DNA of 44,534 nt from the sequence record OZ035807.1; one strand, given 5' to 3'. Below the pieces are notes generated by a model. The model was not told the origin of the DNA, searched no databases, and saw only the letters and a program-made list of their open reading frames with translations. The DNA comes from Vectrevirus LI10P3. Below, one piece after another: positions 3,752-14,550 of the stretch (position 1 is its first letter; the number at the start of each line of letters is the position of its first letter). Both the position numbers and the translations under genes were made by a program.

Positions 3752-3859
3752 GTTGTGTTGCATGGTGTGAACGCATGGTTGCTAAGGCTTCAGAGGAAGG
3801 CAACTATGAAGATTGGCAGAACTACTCAACTTTATTAGCTCAATGGAAAGGGAGATGCA

Positions 3860-4009
3860 ATGAAAAAGCTGTTCAAATCTAAGAAGGTTGTAGGTGCACT
3901 AGTTGCATTGGCAATTGCTCTTGTTTCTGTAGGTCTTGGTGTAGACCTTGGCTCTGGCACGGAATCCTCTGTGACAGACGTGGTCTGCCAAGTGATCACC
4001 TGTGAATAA
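3860..4009 (+). CDS. small secreted/membrane protein (lysis cassette)
   Basis: 49-aa ORF MKKLFKSKKVVGALVALAIALVSVG... with signal-peptide-like N-terminus; GGGAGA RBS; below ORF-track size cutoff. Confidence 0.4.
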   Translation: MKKLFKSKKVVGALVALAIALVSVGLGVDLGSGTESSVTDVVCQVITCE

Positions 4010-4223
4010 GTTTCTAGAAGTGCTGGCAGGTCTTATTGGCCTGCTTGTCTCTGCTAAGAAGAAACAAGAAGAGAAGGAGGCACAAAGTGAAGCGAATCAT
4101 GTTAGTGACAATCCTGCTGATTGGTTCGCTGACCACTTCCGGGTGTCAGCAGGCGTTACCAGAGAAAGCAATGGTGAAACCCCTGAGGCCGACGCTGACG
4201 GAAGTTTACGAGGTAGACGATAA
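4002..4223 (+). CDS. possible i-spanin-like membrane protein
   Basis: 73 aa, N-terminal hydrophobic segment then charged region; GTG start without clear RBS; contains the lipoprotein ORF in +1 frame. Confidence 0.3.
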   Translation: MNKFLEVLAGLIGLLVSAKKKQEEKEAQSEANHVSDNPADWFADHFRVSAGVTRESNGETPEADADGSLRGRR

Positions 4224-6411: not shown

Positions 6412-8124
6412 ATGCTTCAAAGATTAAGTGCTTACTTGGTGAAGTACAAGAGTAAACTAACAGGTACTATTGAGCGCCTGCTATCTGATAAACTATCGGA
6501 TACAATAGATGTTGCGGATTTTGGAGTTACTCCATCTTCCAATGACAACAGGCAAGCACTTCAAGCTGCGTTCAATGCAGTCAGAGTGTTAGGCGGTGGC
6601 ACTGTATTAGTCACTAAAGCTGGCGAATATAAACTCAGTGGTACTGTTGAGATATTTGCTAATACACACTTCAAGGTTGCTAAAGGTGTAACATTTGTAC
6701 GTGACTACGAAACAGGAGATACGCTATTCAGATTATCACAAGGGCAAGCTAGTAATGTAACAGTCAGTGGAGGTATCTATGAAGGCAATGGTCACACTAA
6801 GGGAGATACACCTTTTGTAGTATTTGCATCTACTAGTAATAATGATTTGAAGTTTGAAGGCATAACAGTTAACAATGTAGTGGACTACCACGCCATAGAT
6901 TTAGCAGATTGGAACAACGTAGTTATTCGTGATTGTAAATTCCTAGGTTTTAAGAATACAGGCAGTCGTAACTTCTCAGAGGCTATACAGTTAGACCCAG
7001 GTCTTATTACAGTTGGTCACTATGTACAGTCAAGTGGTATGCTGGTGGAGAATTGCTATGCTGGTCCAAACACAGAATCAGGGTTTGGAGGTTATGGTGC
7101 ACTAATTGGAAATCACGCCTCAGCTTACGGTGTACAGGACAACAATATCCGTATCTTGAATTGCACTACAGATGGTGCTCTCTTTGCAGGTGTACGTGTA
7201 TTTAACTGGAAAAACTGGACAGTGCGTGGTTGCACATTTAGGAACTCTAATGCAAGAGGTGTTCATGTTACACCTGTTTCCTCTCAAACTAAACCGCAAG
7301 GAACTCGACAAGGTAGTATTGTAGATTGTACTTTTGATGGCGTAAGAACACCAGTGCTAATTGCTGCACCATCTTGGCCTTTTACCGATATTAGTGACAT
7401 TTGGCATGACCATATTGAAATTTCTAATAATACTATGATCCTCACAGAGGATGTATCCTATGGTGTAGATGCAAGGTGGTGTAAGAATTTAATTGTAAAA
7501 GGTAATACAGGCTCTGGTGGCTTAGGGTTAATCGGTTTACGCTTTGGGACAAAATACCACATCGAAGGTAATACTTGGGAAAACGGAAGAGGTAGTGGGA
7601 TTTGGTTAGGTGAGTCTGATGCTACTACATTCATTGGTACTGGATTATCGGGCGAAGGTATACTTAGTCGTAATATCCTCTCTAAATTAGGGCAATATGG
7701 TATTCATGTAAACTGCAAGGTTGGCGGTCTAGTGATTAAGGCTAATAATATGAAGGAAGTGTCTACAGCTGAAGCAGGTAGGCGCTTCATTAGCATAGAC
7801 ACAGGAGCTAACAACATCCTAGTAGAAGGTAATATTGGAGTAGATGGAGAAAGCCCTAACAAGCCAAGCCTTGGTATTCGTGTTACTTCTTCTTGTTCCA
7901 ATATTAAACTCATTGGCAATGATTGCTATGGTACACAGGCGCCTCAGAATAACCAAGGAGTCGGTTCTAGTACGGTGATTGTTTATGGACTAAATGGCAA
8001 TCCTACAACTTTAGGCGTAGGTGCACCTGTAGGCTCTTTAGCAACTGATATCAATGGGTCTGGTGGTAGTACATTGTACGTTAAAGAATCTGGTACATCT
8101 GCTCAAGGTTGGGTTGCAAAGTAG
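6412..8124 (+). CDS. tailspike 2: beta-helix depolymerase-like
   Basis: 570 aa, AGAGGAGG RBS; N-terminal VADFGVTPSSNDNRQALQAAFNA pattern typical of pectate-lyase-fold tailspikes; no C-terminal chaperone domain. Confidence 0.75.
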   Translation: MLQRLSAYLVKYKSKLTGTIERLLSDKLSDTIDVADFGVTPSSNDNRQALQAAFNAVRVLGGGTVLVTKAGEYKLSGTVEIFANTHFKVAKGVTFVRDYETGDTLFRLSQGQASNVTVSGGIYEGNGHTKGDTPFVVFASTSNNDLKFEGITVNNVVDYHAIDLADWNNVVIRDCKFLGFKNTGSRNFSEAIQLDPGLITVGHYVQSSGMLVENCYAGPNTESGFGGYGALIGNHASAYGVQDNNIRILNCTTDGALFAGVRVFNWKNWTVRGCTFRNSNARGVHVTPVSSQTKPQGTRQGSIVDCTFDGVRTPVLIAAPSWPFTDISDIWHDHIEISNNTMILTEDVSYGVDARWCKNLIVKGNTGSGGLGLIGLRFGTKYHIEGNTWENGRGSGIWLGESDATTFIGTGLSGEGILSRNILSKLGQYGIHVNCKVGGLVIKANNMKEVSTAEAGRRFISIDTGANNILVEGNIGVDGESPNKPSLGIRVTSSCSNIKLIGNDCYGTQAPQNNQGVGSSTVIVYGLNGNPTTLGVGAPVGSLATDINGSGGSTLYVKESGTSAQGWVAK

Positions 8125-8135
8125 TAGGAAGTTGA

Positions 8136-8285
8136 ATGCCATTAATCAAATCAGTTAAGCAAAGTGCTGTACACCAGAACACAGAAGAACTCATTCAATC
8201 AGGACGTGACCCTAAGCAAGCCTATGCGATTGCCAAGGATGTACAACGTCGTGCTATGAAGAAACCTTCTGCATCTTCTGCGTAA
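8136..8285 (+). CDS. hypothetical small protein
   Basis: 49-aa ORF (MPLIKSVKQSAVHQ...) with AGGAAG RBS; no recognisable motif. Confidence 0.3.
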   Translation: MPLIKSVKQSAVHQNTEELIQSGRDPKQAYAIAKDVQRRAMKKPSASSA

Positions 8286-9131
8286 GCAGGTTAATATCTT
8301 AGTGTACACAAGGGCAGACCTAGGTTTGCTCTTAGTGTATTTACAATGGAGGTCTTATGTATATACCTATGGAAGCAATAGTAGGTTGCCTATGCTTGTT
8401 GATAGGTTTCGTTATAGGCTTACTAGTAAATCCTTAGTCCTGTACAAGGATTAACCAAAGTCAAAATTTTAATATAGGCGTGTGTGAGGTGTCTCGCCCT
8501 CGCCCTCGCCGGATTTCCCCCATATGGGGCCGCGTTGCGGTTGGCTTGGGAATTGGGCTGGGCTGGTCCGTCTTCGACGGGTGGGCCGAGGTCTGCCGAG
8601 GCTTGCTCTTAGTGGGAGCACAAGGAGAACGCCTAGGAAGCGCTAGGGCACGCCTTAGTATTGGACAAGGTGATTGCCTTAGTGAAGCCTCTTAGTGCAT
8701 TCCTGAGGTCATTCAGGGCGCTTATGAGGGATTGACAGGGTGGATGGGCGTGGGCTATCTGTTCGTTTCGTTCACTCCGCTTGCGCTACGTTCACTCGCT
8801 CACGTGTACCTTAGGTTATTCCTTGATGGATAGCTTAGGTTAGCCTTAGTGGATTACCTTAGTTAAAGCCTTAGTGCTTCACTTAGTATCAGCTTAGTAG
8901 TGTACCTTAGTAAGTATTAGTGTCTTCTCTTAGTGATTGCACATGCAAGCATGTAAGATGCCATTAGGTCGCGGTCGGTAGACCGCTAAAGAAGGAGAAT
9001 AGTAATAAGATGCAGTAGGAGGAACACCAGAAACCTAGCCAACCTAGCCTATCCTAGCTCTGTATCTATTGCTTTTCCTTAGTCTAACATGTGAGACAAC
9101 CTAGATTTATCTTAGTGATGATATCTTAGTG

Positions 9132-9160
9132 TTGACAAGGCCATCTCAATATAATACTAT
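9132..9160 (+). promoter_or_regulatory. candidate host sigma70 early promoter
   Basis: TTGACA - 17 bp - TACTAT read directly. Confidence 0.4.
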
Positions 9161-9199
9161 TCATCACGTAGGCAGCACTGAGGTGCTTAGTAGCCAGCT

Positions 9200-9260
9200 A
9201 GTAAGGCATACGAAGAGACTAGCGCTTACATTGCTCTTTAACAATTTGCTTAGTGTAACC
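9200..9260 (+). promoter_or_regulatory. RNase III-like processing element
   Basis: Contains GCTCTTTAACAAT, a motif I recall from the T7 R0.3 RNase III site; recurs three times upstream of early genes. Confidence 0.35.
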
Positions 9261-9303
9261 TATGTATGCCGTGGTTAATTACTTATTGAATGAGGGATTA
9301 ACT

Positions 9304-9483
9304 ATGACATTAAACAACCGTGAACTATCCGTTCTCTTCACTCTGTTGTGCTACATGATTCGTAACAACAAATTGCTTACAGATGACGAGTTGGCACTGT
9401 ATCATCGCTTTCTTAACGAAGGTTGGACCGATACAGTTAATCAACACCGTAACATGATAGATGAGTTGAGGGAGGGTAAATAA
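9304..9483 (+). CDS. hypothetical early protein
   Basis: 59 aa from ATG 9304 with GAGGGA RBS. Confidence 0.5.
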   Translation: MTLNNRELSVLFTLLCYMIRNNKLLTDDELALYHRFLNEGWTDTVNQHRNMIDELREGK

Positions 9484-9707
9484 TGTATCAACATGAGGTA
9501 TTCTTTGAATCAGCTAGCGAAGCTATTCGCTTCTTTGAGGACATGCTGCGAAATGGTGTAGGTGTGCATGTACATAGCTTTCTACTAGATTATGACACTG
9601 AATATCACCGAGTTACCTTAGTATCTGAGTATGACAACCAAGTCATTACTGAGTATCTAGGCAGTGAAGATTACGATTACGATGAAGTAATCACGACAAA
9701 TCTCTAA
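9483..9707 (+). CDS. hypothetical early protein (acidic C-terminus)
   Basis: 74 aa; AGGGAGGG RBS; start overlaps upstream stop (TAAATG). Confidence 0.55.
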   Translation: MYQHEVFFESASEAIRFFEDMLRNGVGVHVHSFLLDYDTEYHRVTLVSEYDNQVITEYLGSEDYDYDEVITTNL

Positions 9708-9715
9708 ATTAACTG

Positions 9716-9744
9716 TTGACAGCCACGGCATACAAGGTTACATT
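9716..9744 (+). promoter_or_regulatory. candidate host sigma70 early promoter
   Basis: TTGACA - 17 bp - TACATT. Confidence 0.4.
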
Positions 9745-9835
9745 AAGCATCAAGACGGCGACGTCTTTAAACATCCCGCTCTTTAACAATACGGTTTGTG
9801 TCTTGATAGGCTAACTAACTAACTAAGGTAATTAT
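9745..9835 (+). promoter_or_regulatory. RNase III-like processing element
   Basis: GCTCTTTAACAAT plus long-range complementarity ATCAAGAC/GTCTTGAT and CTAACTAACTAA tail. Confidence 0.4.
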
Positions 9836-9836
9836 C

Positions 9837-9947
9837 ATGAAAGGTTTAATTTGTGTAGAACGTATGGTCAATGGTAAACTTGAAATATTACCACTGGAAA
9901 ACCAATCTAGCTTCAAAGAGTGGTATGGCTGTTTCTCACTGATTTAA
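9837..9947 (+). CDS. hypothetical small early protein
   Basis: 36-aa ORF (MKGLICVERMVNGK...) between two RNase III-like elements; weak RBS. Confidence 0.25.
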   Translation: MKGLICVERMVNGKLEILPLENQSSFKEWYGCFSLI

Positions 9948-9959
9948 GGTAAAGGCTGG

Positions 9960-10085
9960 CACTAGTCAGCCTATCAAGGCGCAAACCAAGCTCTTTAACA
10001 ATTTGGATGGTAGCTTCTTAGTCTGGATAGGTTAAACCTAGGGGATTCTCTTGAGTCTCCTATAATGTAACCTAACTAACTAAAT
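9960..10085 (+). promoter_or_regulatory. RNase III-like processing element upstream of ocr
   Basis: GCTCTTTAACAATTTGG nearly identical to the motif upstream of T7 gene 0.3 as I recall it; CCTATC/GATAGG complementarity. Confidence 0.45.
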
Positions 10086-10098
10086 GAGGATTAATAAC

Positions 10099-10452
10099 AT
10101 GGCTATGTCTAATATGACTTACTCTCAGGTTTACAACACCGCTCATGCTGCATTAGTTGAACGTATCTGGAATGATGATATTGATTGTATCGATAACGCA
10201 CATGATGCAATCCATGATGTGGCGGATAGCGCTGTACCAATCTATTATGCTGACATCTTCTCCGTGATGGCGAGTGAAGGAATTGATTATTTCTTCGAAG
10301 ACTCCGGCCTGATGCCAGACACTAAGGATGTAACCGTAGTATTGCAAGCCCGTATCTATGAGCAACTCACAATTGATCTATGGGAACATGTTCAGTATAT
10401 GATTGTTGAATACGTCAACTCCGCCGAATATTTAGAAGAAGAAGAGGAATAA
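10099..10452 (+). CDS. ocr: Ocr-like DNA-mimic anti-restriction protein (T7 gp0.3 homolog)
   Basis: MAMSNMTY N-terminus, [19 protein letters not shown], [13 protein letters not shown] and [14 protein letters not shown] blocks match T7 Ocr as I recall it; acidic EEEEE tail; TGAGGA RBS. Confidence 0.85.
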
Positions 10453-10454
10453 GA

Positions 10455-10568
10455 ATGGAAAAGCTATACAACTTCATCTTTTCAGACGGTGTAACCCTGA
10501 AGTGTTCCCTGCGTTTCGCACAAATTCGTGAGGAAGTACTAGGCACTACATACAAACTATTTAGCTGA
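10455..10568 (+). CDS. hypothetical small protein
   Basis: 37-aa ORF with GAGGAA RBS immediately after ocr. Confidence 0.25.
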   Translation: MEKLYNFIFSDGVTLKCSLRFAQIREEVLGTTYKLFS

Positions 10569-10584
10569 CACTATAAGAGAAGGC
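10564..10584 (+). promoter_or_regulatory. degenerate phage promoter-like sequence
   Basis: AGCTGACACTATAAGAGAAGG; core has GA/AG transposition (TATAAGAG vs TATAGAAG). Confidence 0.2.
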
Positions 10585-10644
10585 TTAACAAGGCGTTGCT
10601 ACGGTAGCGCCTGATTAAACTTTCACTTACTAAGAGTTTAGACT

Positions 10645-10872
10645 ATGGATTTAGATAGCATCATTATGGCATTTGCTCTTATTGGCTTAAGCTGGTGCTC
10701 CTATCACCTTTACCGTGAGTTCTTATTTGATAAAGCTAAACGCAAACTAAGAAAGGAAGGCGGTAATTACCTTTGTGTAAGAGGTGGGCTTGTAGAATAC
10801 ATTGCACCTAACGGCACGGAATGCTCCATTAGCAAAGATGCATTTATAGAAACGTGGCATTACATCAAGTAA
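10645..10872 (+). CDS. hypothetical early membrane protein
   Basis: 75 aa, N-terminal hydrophobic helix IIMAFALIGLSWCSY. Confidence 0.5.
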   Translation: MDLDSIIMAFALIGLSWCSYHLYREFLFDKAKRKLRKEGGNYLCVRGGLVEYIAPNGTECSISKDAFIETWHYIK

Positions 10873-10935
10873 CTAGCCTATAGCCTACCTGAGTGGGCTA
10901 TGTGATATTTACTTACACTATATAAGGTGACTATT

Positions 10936-11859
10936 ATGACTACTGAAAACATCCTCCTGTCTGTCCGTGAAGCTGCAACCGCTGAGATTAAGCAGCATTT
11001 GGATAATATCGGCACTTCTTACATCAAAGTTGGCGCTTGTCTGAATGAATTACGCGGTGATTTCGAAGGTCAAAAAGACTTTTTAGCTTATGTAGAATCA
11101 GAGTTCGGCATCAAGAAAGCACAATGCTACAAGCTGATGAGTGTAGCCCGTGTCTTTGAAGGAGACGAACGCTTTAAAGGTGTGGCTATGCGTGTAATGC
11201 TGGCGCTTGTTCCTTTCGCTGATGAAAATATAATCATGGAGAAGGCCGCAGAACTCGCCGCAGAGGGCAAGCTGGACACTAACGCCGTAAACGCCCTGAT
11301 TGATCCTAAGAAAGAGACAAAGGCCGAGACGGTACAATCTAAGGCTGAGGTGGTAAAACCGCAGGAGAATGCGACTGAGGCCGCAGAAACTATGCAAGGA
11401 CATGCGACCTTTGAGGATTTCATCTTAGAGAAGGCGAAAGAGGATTTACAAAGTGTGCCGCCAGTAAGTGAGTCGGGTAACGACGAATCCGCACCGTGGG
11501 AAGATGAAAGCAAGCCGGAAGCGCCTAAGGCCGCGCCACTGGACAACACGGCTAACACTGAAAACGCCGCTATGGCTGGCCTACTGGCACAAATTAAGGC
11601 ACTGACTGAGCAATTACAGGCAGCTAACGACCGCATCGCCGCCCTAACCAGTGCACGTGAAAGCAAGAAGGCAGCCGCGCCTATGCTTCCCCAATTCAAA
11701 TCTAAATGTTTCTATGCTCGCTTGGGTTTAAGCGCTGAGGAGGCAACGAAGAAAACAGCAGTTAACAAGGCACGCCGCGAACTGGTTAAGCTAGGCTATG
11801 GTGAAGGCCATGAAGCATGGGCCTTAATCTCTGAGGCAGTAGAAGAATTAACTAAGTAA
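10936..11859 (+). CDS. hypothetical early protein (T7 gene 0.7 position, no kinase motifs)
   Basis: 307 aa from ATG 10936 (AAGGTGA RBS); low-complexity A/E/K/P-rich centre; no GxGxxG or HRD kinase motifs seen. Confidence 0.6.
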   Translation: MTTENILLSVREAATAEIKQHLDNIGTSYIKVGACLNELRGDFEGQKDFLAYVESEFGIKKAQCYKLMSVARVFEGDERFKGVAMRVMLALVPFADENIIMEKAAELAAEGKLDTNAVNALIDPKKETKAETVQSKAEVVKPQENATEAAETMQGHATFEDFILEKAKEDLQSVPPVSESGNDESAPWEDESKPEAPKAAPLDNTANTENAAMAGLLAQIKALTEQLQAANDRIAALTSARESKKAAAPMLPQFKSKCFYARLGLSAEEATKKTAVNKARRELVKLGYGEGHEAWALISEAVEELTK

Positions 11860-11922
11860 CCTTATCGGTGGCATCTTCTTAGGTGTCACCTATTAAGGTT
11901 TCTTTCACTAGGAGTAAACAAG

Positions 11923-14550
11923 ATGCAAGACTTACACGCTATTCAACTTCAACTTGAAGAAGAAATGTTTAACGGCGGTATCCGTCGCTTTGAAGCGGAC
12001 CAACAGCGCCAGATTGCATCCGGTAATGAATCAGACACGGCATGGAATCGCCGCTTATTGTCCGAGTTAATTGCGCCAATGGCTGAAGGTATTCAGGCAT
12101 ACAAGGAAGAGTATGAAGGCAAGCGCGGTCGTGCACCACGTGCATTGGCTTTCATTAACTGCGTAGAAAATGAAGTGGCAGCGTATATCACGATGAAGAT
12201 CGTAATGGATATGCTTAACACTGATGTAACCTTGCAAGCTATCGCTATGAATGTAGCTGACCGCATCGAAGACCAAGTGCGCTTCAGTAAACTAGAAGGC
12301 CATGCAGCTAAATATTTTGAGAAGGTCAAGAAGTCACTTAAGGCAAGTAAGACTAAATCATATCGCCATGCGCACAACGTAGCGGTCGTGGCTGAGAAGT
12401 CAGTAGCTGACCGTGACGCTGATTTCTCCCGCTGGGAGGCATGGCCTAAAGACACCTTGCTGCAAATTGGGATGACCTTGCTTGAAATCTTAGAGAATAG
12501 CGTATTCTTCAACGGGCAACCTGTCTTCCTCCGCACCTTGCGCACTAATGGCGGCAAACATGGTGTTTACTACCTACAGACTAGTGAACACGTAGGTGAG
12601 TGGATAACTGCATTTAAAGAACATGTAGCGCAACTTAGTCCAGCCTATGCACCTTGCGTTATTCCTCCGCGTCCGTGGGTATCACCCTTTAACGGTGGGT
12701 TTCATACTGAGAAAGTAGCAAGCCGTATTCGTCTGGTAAAAGGCAATCGTGAGCACGTCCGCAAGCTGACCAAAAAGCAAATGCCAGCGGTTTACAAGGC
12801 TGTTAACGCTTTGCAGGCGACTAAGTGGCAGGTTAATAAAGAGGTTTTACAGGTTGTGGAGGACGTTATACGTCTAGACCTCGGCTATGGTGTACCTTCC
12901 TTTAAACCACTCATCGACCGTGAGAACAAGCCAGCTAATCCGGTGCCGTTAGAGTTCCAGCACCTGCGAGGCCGTGAACTGAAAGAAATGCTTACGCCGG
13001 AACAATGGCAAGCCTTTATCAACTGGAAAGGTGAATGTACTAAGCTGTACACCGCTGAAACTAAGCGCGGAAGCAAATCGGCGGCAACCGTTCGCATGGT
13101 TGGTCAGGCCCGTAAATATAGCCAGTTCGACGCAATCTACTTCGTGTATGCACTGGACAGCCGCAGCCGTGTATACGCGCAATCTAGCACACTCTCACCG
13201 CAATCAAATGACTTGGGCAAGGCCTTGCTCCGTTTTACCGAAGGGCAGCGTCTTGATAGCGCTGAGGCGCTTAAGTGGTTTTTGGTGAACGGGGCTAATA
13301 ACTGGGGTTGGGATAAGAAAACTTTTGACGTGCGCACTGCTAACGTGCTGGATAGTGAATTTCAAGACATGTGCCGCGACATTGCAGCGGATCCGCTGAC
13401 CTTCACTCAATGGGTAAATGCCGACTCCCCTTACGGCTTCCTTGCATGGTGCTTTGAATATGCGCGTTATCTGGATGCACTGGATGAAGGCACGCAAGAC
13501 CAATTCATGACGCACCTCCCAGTCCATCAAGATGGTAGTTGTTCTGGTATCCAGCACTACAGTGCTATGCTACGCGATGCAGTAGGTGCGAAAGCAGTAA
13601 ACCTTAAGCCCTCTGACTCTCCTCAAGATATTTATGGTGCCGTTGCGCAGGTAGTAATTCAGAAGAATTATGCATACATGAATGCAGAGGATGCGGAAAC
13701 CTTCACTTCTGGCAGCGTGACTTTAACAGGTGCGGAGCTGCGTAGTATGGCTAGTGCGTGGGATATGATAGGAATCACTCGCGGCCTGACCAAAAAGCCC
13801 GTAATGACACTACCTTATGGCAGCACACGTCTAACCTGCCGTGAGTCAGTGATTGATTATATCGTTGATTTAGAAGAAAAAGAGGCCCAACGGGCTATTG
13901 CGGAAGGGCGTACCGCCAATCCTGTACACCCTTTTGATAATGACCGTAAGGACAGCCTGACACCTAGCGCAGCTTATAACTATATGACAGCTTTAATCTG
14001 GCCTTCTATTTCGGAAGTGGTTAAAGCTCCTATAGTGGCAATGAAAATGATTCGTCAGCTTGCACGTTTCGCAGCTAAAAGGAATGAAGGCTTAGAGTAC
14101 ACCTTGCCTACTGGCTTCATCTTGCAACAAAAGATAATGGCGACAGATATGCTCCGCGTATCTACTTGCTTGATGGGAGAAATCAAGATGAGTCTACAGA
14201 TTGAAACGGACGTAGTGGATGAAACGGCTATGATGGGCGCTGCTGCCCCTAACTTTGTGCACGGTCATGATGCCAGTCACCTTATCTTAACGGTCTGCGA
14301 CCTTGTTGATAAAGGGATTACATCTATCGCAGTAATTCATGATTCTTTTGGCACTCATGCAGGTCGCACCGCAGACCTACGTGATAGTCTAAGGGCAGAA
14401 ATGGTGAAGATGTATCAAGGCCGTAATGCCCTGCAAAGCCTGTTAGATGAGCATGAAGAACGCTGGTTAGTAGACACCGGAATCCAAGTGCCAGAGCAAG
14501 GAGAGTTTGACCTTAACGAAATCTTAGTATCTGACTATTGCTTCGCATAA
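11923..14550 (+). CDS. single-subunit DNA-dependent RNA polymerase (SP6-type)
   Basis: 875 aa; N-terminus [30 protein letters not shown] and motifs [34 protein letters not shown] match the SP6 RNAP family as I recall it; C-terminal ...DYCFA. Confidence 0.95.

Follow-up and report, generated by a model that had tools for sequence, protein, structure and literature searches.

An rRNA-operon-like arrangement of boxA motifs and predicted long-range RNA helices in the early region of a K1-5-like Escherichia coli phage

We analyzed the early region of the Escherichia coli phage Vectrevirus LI10P3 (sequence record OZ035807.1), where three copies of a boxA motif, two predicted long-range RNA helices and a gene for the anti-restriction protein Ocr lie ahead of the gene for the phage RNA polymerase. 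The window is the whole stretch of 44,534 nucleotides (nt), and the region in question occupies its positions 9132-11859. The 44.5-kb genome is K1-5/K1E-like and circularly permuted in the window: its physical left end was placed at ~8492, where tctcgccctcgccctcgccgg... corresponds to SP6 nucleotide 1, and its right end before that point, with the tailspike gene at 6412-8124 and an open reading frame (ORF) for a basic protein of 49 amino acids (aa) at 8136-8285. Positions 9132-11859, the early region of this K1-5-like E. coli phage, lie 0.6-3.4 kb from the physical left end, and the block is closed by the polymerase gene. Among the relatives within Vectrevirus (Autographiviridae; Molineuxvirinae), Escherichia phage 6948 (OL362272) matches 9100-11900 over its full length at 98.1% identity, and the DNA of this interval is common to a hundred phage records. 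The genes and their order are already known from SP6, K1-5 and K1E, and the gene block itself is ordinary, being widespread in more than 100 sequenced phages in which it is labeled "hypothetical". The RNA layer of boxA copies and helices appears to be absent from the literature and database annotation that were searched.

BoxA copies, host-type promoters and long-range helices

The features of the promoter-proximal part of the block are the following.

9132-9160, plus strand: sigma-70-type early promoter P1, TTGACA-N17-TACTAT, a consensus match ~640 nt from the inferred left end
9233-9245, plus strand: boxA1, GCTCTTTAACAAT, the same sequence as boxA in the leader of E. coli rrnB
9247-9276, plus strand: leader (5') strand of helix H1, starting 1 nt after boxA1
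9716-9744, plus strand: sigma-70-type early promoter P2, TTGACA-N17-TACATT, called from consensus match and conservation
9721-9749, plus strand: trailer (3') strand of H1, pairing with the H1 leader and overlapping the spacer and -10 hexamer of P2
9752-9767, plus strand: small hairpin AAGACG-GCGA-CGTCTT in a boxB-like position between P2 and boxA2, read from the sequence
9778-9790, plus strand: boxA2, exact copy of GCTCTTTAACAAT and a match to GYTCTTTAANA
9793-9824, plus strand: leader strand of helix H2 with a continuous 20-bp core at 9793-9812, starting 2 nt after boxA2
9954-9987, plus strand: trailer strand of H2 with its core at 9967-9986, ending 2 nt before boxA3
9990-10002, plus strand: boxA3, exact and last copy of GCTCTTTAACAAT, without a long-range partner

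The original prediction had noted two TTGACA-N17 promoters and three copies of GCTCTTTAACAAT in this region and had taken the latter for RNase III-like sites. Both promoters were recovered, as were all three exact copies, which start at 9233, 9778 and 9990 on the plus strand, but the reading of the motif did not hold. By direct sequence comparison, the boxA in the leader of E. coli rrnB agrees with the 13-mer at every position; there it lies 30-odd nt 3' of the rrnB P2 promoter with a boxB hairpin before it. Structures of RNase III type adjoin the phage motif rather than lie inside it. The gammaproteobacterial boxA consensus is GYTCTTTAANA, and boxA elements bind NusB/NusE (PMC5725501). This consensus matches three times in the 44.5 kb, only at these sites, against 0.32 matches expected, and none of 100 shuffled sequences reached three. 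On the strength of the sequence, GCTCTTTAACAAT is an rrn-type boxA, a predicted antitermination signal, and not an RNase III site. The copies lie on the transcribed strand; from the start sites predicted for P1 and P2, the distances are ~66 nt to boxA1 and ~27 nt to boxA2, respectively.

The alternative that follows from the original prediction sees here a T7-style early region whose GCTCTTTAACAAT elements serve as RNase III sites, with the neighboring ORFs as new anti-defense inhibitors. RNase III-type hairpins do exist in the region, and each copy of the motif adjoins a strand of a double-stranded element. However, besides being identical to rrn boxA, the motif lies outside the predicted long-range helices and local hairpins (boxA1 alone is partly paired in the global fold), and in T7 the identical 13-mer, located between promoter A3 and gene 0.3 (813-825), lies upstream of, and not within, the hairpin in front of gene 0.3. 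We consider this combined alternative quite unlikely; its anti-defense part is taken up with the genes below. A boxA in the T7 early region has probably been noted already in the T7 literature.

The stretch that follows boxA1 is complementary to the P2 spacer, and GGTTTGTGTCTTGATAGGCT just 3' of boxA2 is the wobble-tolerant complement of AGCCTATCAAGGCGCAAACC just 5' of boxA3. The resulting helix H1 comprises 29 base pairs (bp) including two G.U pairs, with a duplex energy of -48.1 kcal/mol against a background minimum of -28.2 and mean of -13.4 kcal/mol, and H2 comprises 29 bp (20-bp core) at -40.7 kcal/mol against a background minimum of -26.0 kcal/mol, the background being drawn from 4572 windows from the rest of the genome. 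The H1 loop of 444 nt encloses ORFs for proteins of 59 and 74 aa, the H2 loop of 129 nt encloses a 36-aa ORF, and each trailer ends 2-28 nt before the next boxA. Both helices occur in the minimum free energy and the centroid folds of the whole 871-nt transcript (z = -6.1). The leader after boxA3 has no long-range partner beyond background (best duplex -26.3 kcal/mol), and a search of 8100-12100 against Rfam at permissive thresholds returned no family for these elements, only a spurious microRNA-like match on a hairpin.

Small hairpins are found upstream of boxA2, boxA3 and many, though not all, boxA copies in relatives. No clear boxC-like element was found: the leaders hold only GUGU at +8 to +11 after boxA (9253-9256 and 9798-9801). 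This GUGU is present in most enterobacterial phage leaders, where it is reminiscent of rrn boxC (UGUGUGGG), and is absent in the Erwinia and Pseudomonas phages.

Promoter-like sites matching at 10 of 12 positions number eight in the region where 7.9 are expected from shuffled sequence, i.e., they are not above chance. P2, spacer included, is conserved in SP6, LL11 and the Proteus, Klebsiella K44 and Salmonella pSL2 relatives, and the spacer is presumably so strongly conserved because the trailer strand of H1 lies in it. The trailer overlaps both the spacer and the -10 hexamer of P2, apparently as in Pseudomonas and Vibrio phages (L009, ~1501-1535; L007, ~1224-1261); RNA initiated at a promoter that doubles as trailer would thus be without the trailer. 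Two further candidates were not claimed as promoters. One is a third sigma-70 promoter before boxA3, where the Vibrio phage has TTGACA-N17-TAAGAT and the window the decayed CTGGCA...GCGCAA, and the other is TTGACA at 8732, which has a poor -10 hexamer (CTATCT).

The distances from boxA to the next start codon bear on another possibility, namely that boxA is mainly a Nus-dependent repressor of translation of the next ORF, or a decoy that soaks up NusB/NusE and depresses host rRNA synthesis. The next start codon follows boxA2 at a distance of 47 nt and boxA1 at 59 nt, suhB is a documented case of translational repression that depends on boxA (PMC5725501), and several copies on a strongly transcribed early RNA could titrate the factors. 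Yet boxA3 is 97 nt from the start of ocr with a large hairpin between them, the fixed order of boxA and leader and the presence of a boxA after each trailer fit reloading during elongation better, and it would seem counter-productive for a phage to repress its own early anti-defense genes. We regard a primarily repressive or titrating role as unlikely.

The helix layout in related phages and controls

Early regions with two to three boxA copies each, at 0-1 mismatch, are found in SP6, Salmonella pSL2, Klebsiella K44 and F4M1D, Proteus Premi, Erwinia phiEa100, Pantoea Nufs112, Vibrio VEN and Pseudomonas Achelous, and the sequence flanking boxA is fully diverged in relatives that keep the motif. 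The same helix scan was run on ten relatives, which together with the window make a set of 11 phages, and the layout of boxA plus helix recurs in the 10 related phages, which come from at least seven host genera. In all, 18 helices were found, each starting 0-2 nt after a boxA; for 14 of them a downstream boxA was detected, and 13 of these end 1-32 nt and one 70 nt before it. Every boxA but the last bears a leader strand of 21-34 bp in the window, in the Salmonella, Proteus, Vibrio and Pseudomonas relatives and in Klebsiella K44, and in Klebsiella F4M1D, Erwinia phiEa100 and Pantoea Nufs112 the last consensus-detected boxA bears a helix as well. The helices are 20-34 bp long, with loops of 98-695 nt and energies of -32 to -58 kcal/mol compared with -20 to -30 kcal/mol for the next-best site, and the annotated coding sequences of every relative fall inside the helix loops.

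Helix sequences differ by genus, for instance GCCUUACUAGUGCGCCCUUGAU in Erwinia and GGUCAUGAUAUGCAGUGCUUAGCAGGUUGUC in Pseudomonas, while pairing is kept by compensatory change between genera and the position relative to boxA is fixed. At each position from +3 to +22 after boxA, 16-18 of the 18 helices are paired, most of these positions showing three to six pair types, and over all helices 51 G.U pairs stand against 7 A.C-type mismatches. Because such an asymmetry is expected only under selection on the plus-strand RNA, the excess of G.U over A.C indicates that it is the RNA in which pairing has been selected.

This bears directly on whether the inverted repeats might instead act at the level of DNA, as recombination joints for cassette swaps or as protein-binding palindromes with no role in RNA. 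The cargo does vary, in that the helix type around the 36-aa ORF of the window encloses gp1 in SP6 and another ORF in LL11; the two module types stand in opposite order in Zindervirus and Vectrevirus; and one trailer overlaps a promoter. The G.U excess, the covariation at a fixed distance from boxA and arms separated by 98-695 nt, more than a simple operator palindrome would allow, nevertheless make a purely DNA-level role very improbable.

In T7 and in a Kayfunavirus, the same scan found boxA but no such long-range helix. As an outside control, 123 exact GCTCTTTAACAATT matches in IMG/VR contigs gave a median best duplex of -23.9 kcal/mol, and seven of the nine strongest duplexes (-39 kcal/mol or better) have another boxA after them. 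An unrelated viral contig (IMGVR_UViG_3300035181_002381, ~3801-4170, minus strand) has the boxA 14-mer followed by a long-range duplex of -53 kcal/mol; no second boxA consensus was found downstream, and it may be a variant of the same design.

Genes, phage promoter and local hairpins

The genes and the remaining features of the block are listed below.

9304-9483, plus strand: 59-aa ORF, phrog_9275, H1 cargo, 67% identical to SP6 gp3
9483-9707, plus strand: 74-aa acidic ORF (isoelectric point, pI, 4.2), phrog_6403, H1 cargo; its tblastn match in K1E overlaps the annotated gp2 and gp1.5
9837-9947, plus strand: 36-aa ORF, H2 cargo, unannotated in many records that hold it
10014-10089, plus strand: two-tier hairpin (upper stem 10039-10062) between boxA3 and ocr, z = -3.2
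10099-10452, plus strand: ocr, DNA-mimic anti-restriction protein, T7 gp0.3 homolog (Pfam PF08684)
10455-10568, plus strand: 37-aa ORF, gene 4 of K1-5 and K1E, phrog_11746, starting 2 nt after the ocr stop
10559-10579, plus strand: SP6-type phage RNA polymerase promoter ATTTAGCTGACACTATAAGAG, from the genome's own 21-nt promoter consensus
10574-10629, plus strand: stable hairpin just downstream of the phage promoter, z = -3.6
10645-10872, plus strand: 75-aa ORF, K1E gene 5, phrog_21597, with an N-terminal hydrophobic helix
10867-10914, plus strand: hairpin overlapping the promoter-like site 10906-10926
10936-11859, plus strand: 307-aa protein of the SP6 gp7 family, phrog_4571, assigned from profiles and an AlphaFold model
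11858-11900, plus strand: two-tier hairpin with a U-rich tract after it, directly ahead of the RNA polymerase gene, z = -4.9
11923-14550, plus strand: phage single-subunit RNA polymerase gene, downstream limit of the early block

An Ocr homolog at 10099-10452 and six ORFs around it (starting at 9304, 9483, 9837, 10455, 10645 and 10936) had been predicted. All six are present, each with relatives in other phages. Their description as lacking recognizable motifs goes too far for the 307-aa ORF, which is predicted to contain a DUF3102/helix-turn-helix (HTH) domain, a coiled coil and a J-like domain. Homology and structure prediction confirmed Ocr and gave the 307-aa protein a fold by profiles and model, but gave no function for the small ORFs. 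In sequence searches of single ORFs against Pfam, NCBIfam and the Protein Data Bank (PDB), only Ocr was matched.

The match of Ocr to PF08684 reaches 143.1 bits (E = 4.4e-42; cut-off 25 bits) and that to phrog_2568 E = 2.3e-46; the protein is 73% identical to T7 gp0.3 over 96 aa and has 117 aa, a pI of 4.05 and 25 Asp+Glu compared with 3 Lys+Arg. These values place it in the family, whose function, inhibition of type I restriction (and BREX) by DNA mimicry, can be predicted for it. In the related record OR424384, Ocr is likely mis-annotated as "protein kinase". That Ocr is a genuine anti-restriction gene, and that early regions of T7-like phages are rich in takeover genes, speaks for the part of the alternative reading in which the surrounding ORFs are new inhibitors. 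Against it, searches of PHROGs, Pfam and NCBIfam linked no ORF to defense systems, and the same databases gave no functional link for the small ORFs, which PHROGs lists as of unknown function. As a proposal it remains a reasonable, ordinary guess.

The 59-aa ORF starts at the ATG at 9304, with GAGGG 8 nt upstream, and the ATG at 9262 has no Shine-Dalgarno sequence. The 74-aa ORF occurs in Vectrevirus and a few Klebsiella and Lelliottia phages; AlphaFold gave a beta-alpha-beta-beta-alpha-beta arrangement, i.e., a generic ferredoxin-like fold resembling CutA/PII, in which one of five models was confident. Ribosomal protein S10 was among the fold matches of this model, and no meaning was read into the match. 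The 36-aa ORF is 100% identical in 34 records, and a 75%-identical copy with many synonymous differences lies upstream of the S-adenosylmethionine (SAM) hydrolase gene in EV136_1, a T3/T7-like Kayfunavirus of Enterobacter; from its sequence conservation, it is a real, mobile micro-gene. In that phage, positions 709-960 hold a boxA, hairpins and the unannotated homolog ahead of the SAM hydrolase gene, and the micro-gene thus appears to move between subfamilies, ahead of different anti-restriction genes. The 75-aa ORF is limited to about 30 phage records, nearly all of E. coli Vectrevirus.

The 37-aa gene was found in 134 phage records, and its spacing to ocr would suit translational coupling. 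A Proteus phage copy is 86% identical at the protein level, compared with 42% for Ocr and 50% for the 307-aa protein, and differs at 19 synonymous and 5 non-synonymous codons. As judged from these codons, the gene is under strong purifying selection in a conserved pairing with ocr, and as a strongly constrained microprotein gene coupled to ocr, it is a lead alongside Ocr. Alignment with T7 gp0.4, considered as a homolog, failed. The last codons of the 37-aa gene overlap the phage promoter at 10559-10579, which sits at the same place in phage 6948, KMB14, LL11 and SP6, ~1.3 kb ahead of the polymerase gene. This promoter is one of 10 matches to the SP6-type consensus across the genome (0.01 expected) and differs from it at two of 21 positions, with A instead of G at +1. 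With this promoter inside, the block would not be transcribed purely by host polymerase, and the membrane-protein, 307-aa and polymerase genes should also be readable by the phage polymerase. A second phage-promoter-like site, ATATTTACTTACACTATATAAGG at 10906-10926 just before the 307-aa gene, has its upstream element one base too close compared with the consensus; it is present in phage 6948 and KMB14 and was not picked up in LL11.

The 307-aa protein belongs to a family with members in 213 phage records (130 clusters at 50% identity), whose genes lie directly or almost directly ahead of the polymerase gene in Molineuxvirinae, Colwellvirinae and unclassified relatives. The protein had been predicted to sit in the slot of the T7 gp0.7 kinase without kinase motifs, and searches of Pfam, NCBIfam and the PDB sequences indeed gave no kinase match; the protein is not a kinase. 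AlphaFold, given 40 diverse sequences, modeled a seven-helix N-terminal domain (residues 8-124), a disordered acidic linker, a long helix or coiled coil (205-247) and a C-terminal domain (248-307) with a predicted local distance difference test (pLDDT) score of about 90. A search of the BFVD with this model returned only uncharacterized or DUF3102 proteins. The N-terminal domains of 24 of 35 family members match DUF3102 (PF11300), and in its predicted fold this domain of the 307-aa protein is like the HTH domains of ParB/Spo0J/KorB/SopB; the succession of HTH and coiled coil also recalls KfrA-like proteins. The protein has no sequence-level match to any solved ParB and, in contrast to ParB, no N-terminal CTPase domain and no partner ATPase gene.

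The C-terminal domain resembles that of J-domain proteins (DnaJ family) both in fold and in the family profile: a profile of 36 family C-terminal domains matches DnaJ J-domains (E = 4e-7) and 19 of the 36 members match Pfam DnaJ, while the 307-aa sequence of the window alone does not reach Pfam DnaJ. An invariant LPQF precedes the J-like domain. The HPD tripeptide that is needed to stimulate DnaK is replaced by GYGEGH, of which G287, Y288, G289 and H292 are invariant in the close family, and distant members have HYNPD or HYTPE, rarely HHPDK, at this site. The J-domain protein Rki of phage RB43 has a functional J-domain (PMC3486835), unlike the J-like module here, which in the absence of HPD should not stimulate DnaK canonically. 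As modeled, the 307-aa protein is probably a DNA-binding, oligomeric protein with a J-like module, and the fold assignment offers a starting point for the best-conserved uncharacterized early gene in this group of phages. Members of the family are likely mis-annotated as "endolysin" or "andolysin" (P0050, OQ818708).

Two of the local hairpins may, by form and position, be RNase III sites of the local T7 type. The hairpin at 10014-10089 is conserved in SP6 with compensatory changes, and the leader from boxA3 to ocr aligns with the leader from boxA to gene 0.3 in T7, which holds a comparable hairpin; we take this T7 hairpin to be the location of the RNase III site R0.3, presumably cut near nt 890. 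The hairpin at 11858-11900 keeps its shape with different stem sequences in individual folds of SP6 and the Salmonella, Klebsiella, Proteus and Vibrio relatives, and a combined MAFFT/RNAalifold analysis aligned poorly and gave partial support only. With its U-rich tract, this hairpin is a candidate for either an R1-like RNase III site or an attenuator. In several relatives the pre-polymerase hairpin starts with TTGAC(A/T)TAT, a -35-like hexamer that the copy in the window lacks and that is reminiscent of the minor E. coli promoter C immediately ahead of gene 1 in T7.

The predicted T7-style early architecture was thus right in part. The block is an early region of the T7 supergroup, and it resembles that of T7 (promoters A1-A3, boxA, RNase III sites R0.3 to R1.3, genes 0.3 to 1) in several respects: host promoters are situated close to the left end, one identical boxA precedes gene 0.3 in T7, a local hairpin separates boxA from ocr, and another hairpin comes before the polymerase gene. 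T7 differs, however, in its single boxA and the absence of long-range helices, in the gp0.7 kinase where the window has the DUF3102/J-like protein, and in other, unrelated small ORFs, such as gp0.4 compared with the 37-aa protein. The placement of the phage promoter is also different, as for T7 a single T7 promoter, phiOL close to the left end, is listed ahead of gene 1, with none in the vicinity of that gene. SP6, K1-5 and K1E share with the window the order of small ORFs, Ocr, 37-aa gene, phage promoter, gp7-family protein and polymerase as well as the modules of boxA and helix, and differ only in the cargo ORFs and the module order; their database records label the genes "hypothetical" and carry no boxA, helix or domain annotation.

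At the genome ends, 17 plus-strand copies of CTTAGTR lie within ~960 bp (8298-9255); there are 38 copies genome-wide against 15.7 expected, and the array resembles the short repeat arrays beside the terminal repeats of T7.

A proposed early operon resembling an rRNA operon

In the E. coli rrn operon, a second boxA in the spacer precedes the helix around the 23S rRNA. The rrn operons begin with boxB, boxA and boxC, followed by the 5' strand of a leader-trailer helix of 25-40 bp that encloses the 16S rRNA and is cleaved by RNase III, and a similar helix of 27 bp brackets the 23S rRNA (PMC10250234). The early block has the same succession of an identical 13-nt boxA, the 5' strand of a long helix, the 3' strand beyond the cargo and a fresh boxA after the first helix, and in both a small hairpin is often found just upstream of boxA. 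The differences are that the phage cargo consists of short protein-coding cassettes (loops of 98-695 nt) rather than structural RNA, that the phage leader strand begins 0-2 nt after boxA and several phage trailers double as sigma-70 promoters, and that boxC is not clear in the phage, with roles for Nus factors and RNase III proposed by analogy.

The observed identity of the motif with rrn boxA, the helices with their statistics and covariation, and the synteny among relatives point to an early operon that is laid out like an rRNA operon, with boxA, a leader-trailer helix and again boxA around protein-coding cassettes; together with Nus loading and release by RNase III, we consider this reading rather probable. 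According to it, E. coli RNA polymerase would start at the two sigma-70 promoters (9132 and 9716), and NusB/NusE and other Nus factors would load at the boxA that follows within 30-70 nt of each transcript start. The loaded polymerase would be a fast, Rho-resistant antitermination complex of the rrn type, able to pass the tiny ORFs and structured spacers as far as the phage polymerase gene. The leader strand, held near the polymerase at boxA, would pair with the trailer as the latter emerges, as in the 16S and 23S leader-trailer helices, after which RNase III would cut the stem and free each cassette as an mRNA with paired ends, and the next boxA would reload the antitermination complex. The last boxA would be followed by the local hairpin, at what we take to be the R0.3 position, and by ocr with its tightly coupled 37-aa gene, and the SP6-type promoter would add transcription by the phage polymerase of the genes for the small membrane protein, the DUF3102/J-like protein and the polymerase itself.

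The helices might also act without RNase III, either as insulators that keep spacer RNA double-stranded against Rho and RNase E or by joining the ends of the mRNA, a version that differs from the rRNA-operon-like model in one step only. The helices are real and conserved, and the rrn leader-trailer helix has an essential role that is independent of RNase III (PMC10250234). On the other hand, perfect duplexes of 20-30 bp are classic substrates of RNase III, and relatives of T7 process their early RNA by this enzyme. A function free of RNase III seems to us rather unlikely.

Several points weigh against the rRNA-operon-like model. Nus binding, antitermination, RNase III cleavage and mRNA stabilization are functions that we infer by analogy, and the promoters were called from consensus matches and conservation alone. 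An rrn-type complex counters mainly Rho, and no Rho terminator has been demonstrated in the region. Ribosomes on the cargo ORFs could hinder or unwind the long-range pairing, and a boxA that lies close to a start codon is able to repress translation, suhB being an example (PMC5725501). The boxB-like hairpin is not universal among relatives, and the boxA consensus was not found in the 6-kb stretches fetched for the Marinomonas, Aeromonas and Klebsiella Roth32 phages. Full-text searches found no paper that links boxA or leader-trailer helices with T7-like or SP6-like phages; the genome papers of 2004 on SP6 and K1-5 were outside this search, and part of the layout may already be described there. 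The Marinomonas, Aeromonas and Roth32 phages do carry a gp7-family gene, and they may use a different signal or have boxA outside the 6 kb examined.

If the rRNA-operon-like model is true, the phages would offer a simple natural system in which an rrn antitermination complex aids the pairing of distant RNA strands. Exact boundaries would be available for the cassettes in which early anti-defense and takeover genes are swapped, aiding gene mining, and edits to "non-coding" early DNA could break expression in engineered therapeutic phages specific for K1/K5 capsules. More tentatively, and with somewhat less than even confidence, we propose that SP6-like phages (Molineuxvirinae, Colwellvirinae and unclassified relatives) have modeled their early genes on the grammar of the host rRNA operon. 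Units of boxA, leader, cassette and trailer would recruit the rrn complex for Rho-proof transcription and helix chaperoning, RNase III would release cassette mRNAs with protected ends, and the frame would serve as a plug-in slot for gene exchange. The layout, if it works as modeled, would also explain the strong conservation of promoter spacers and intergenic sequences in these phages.

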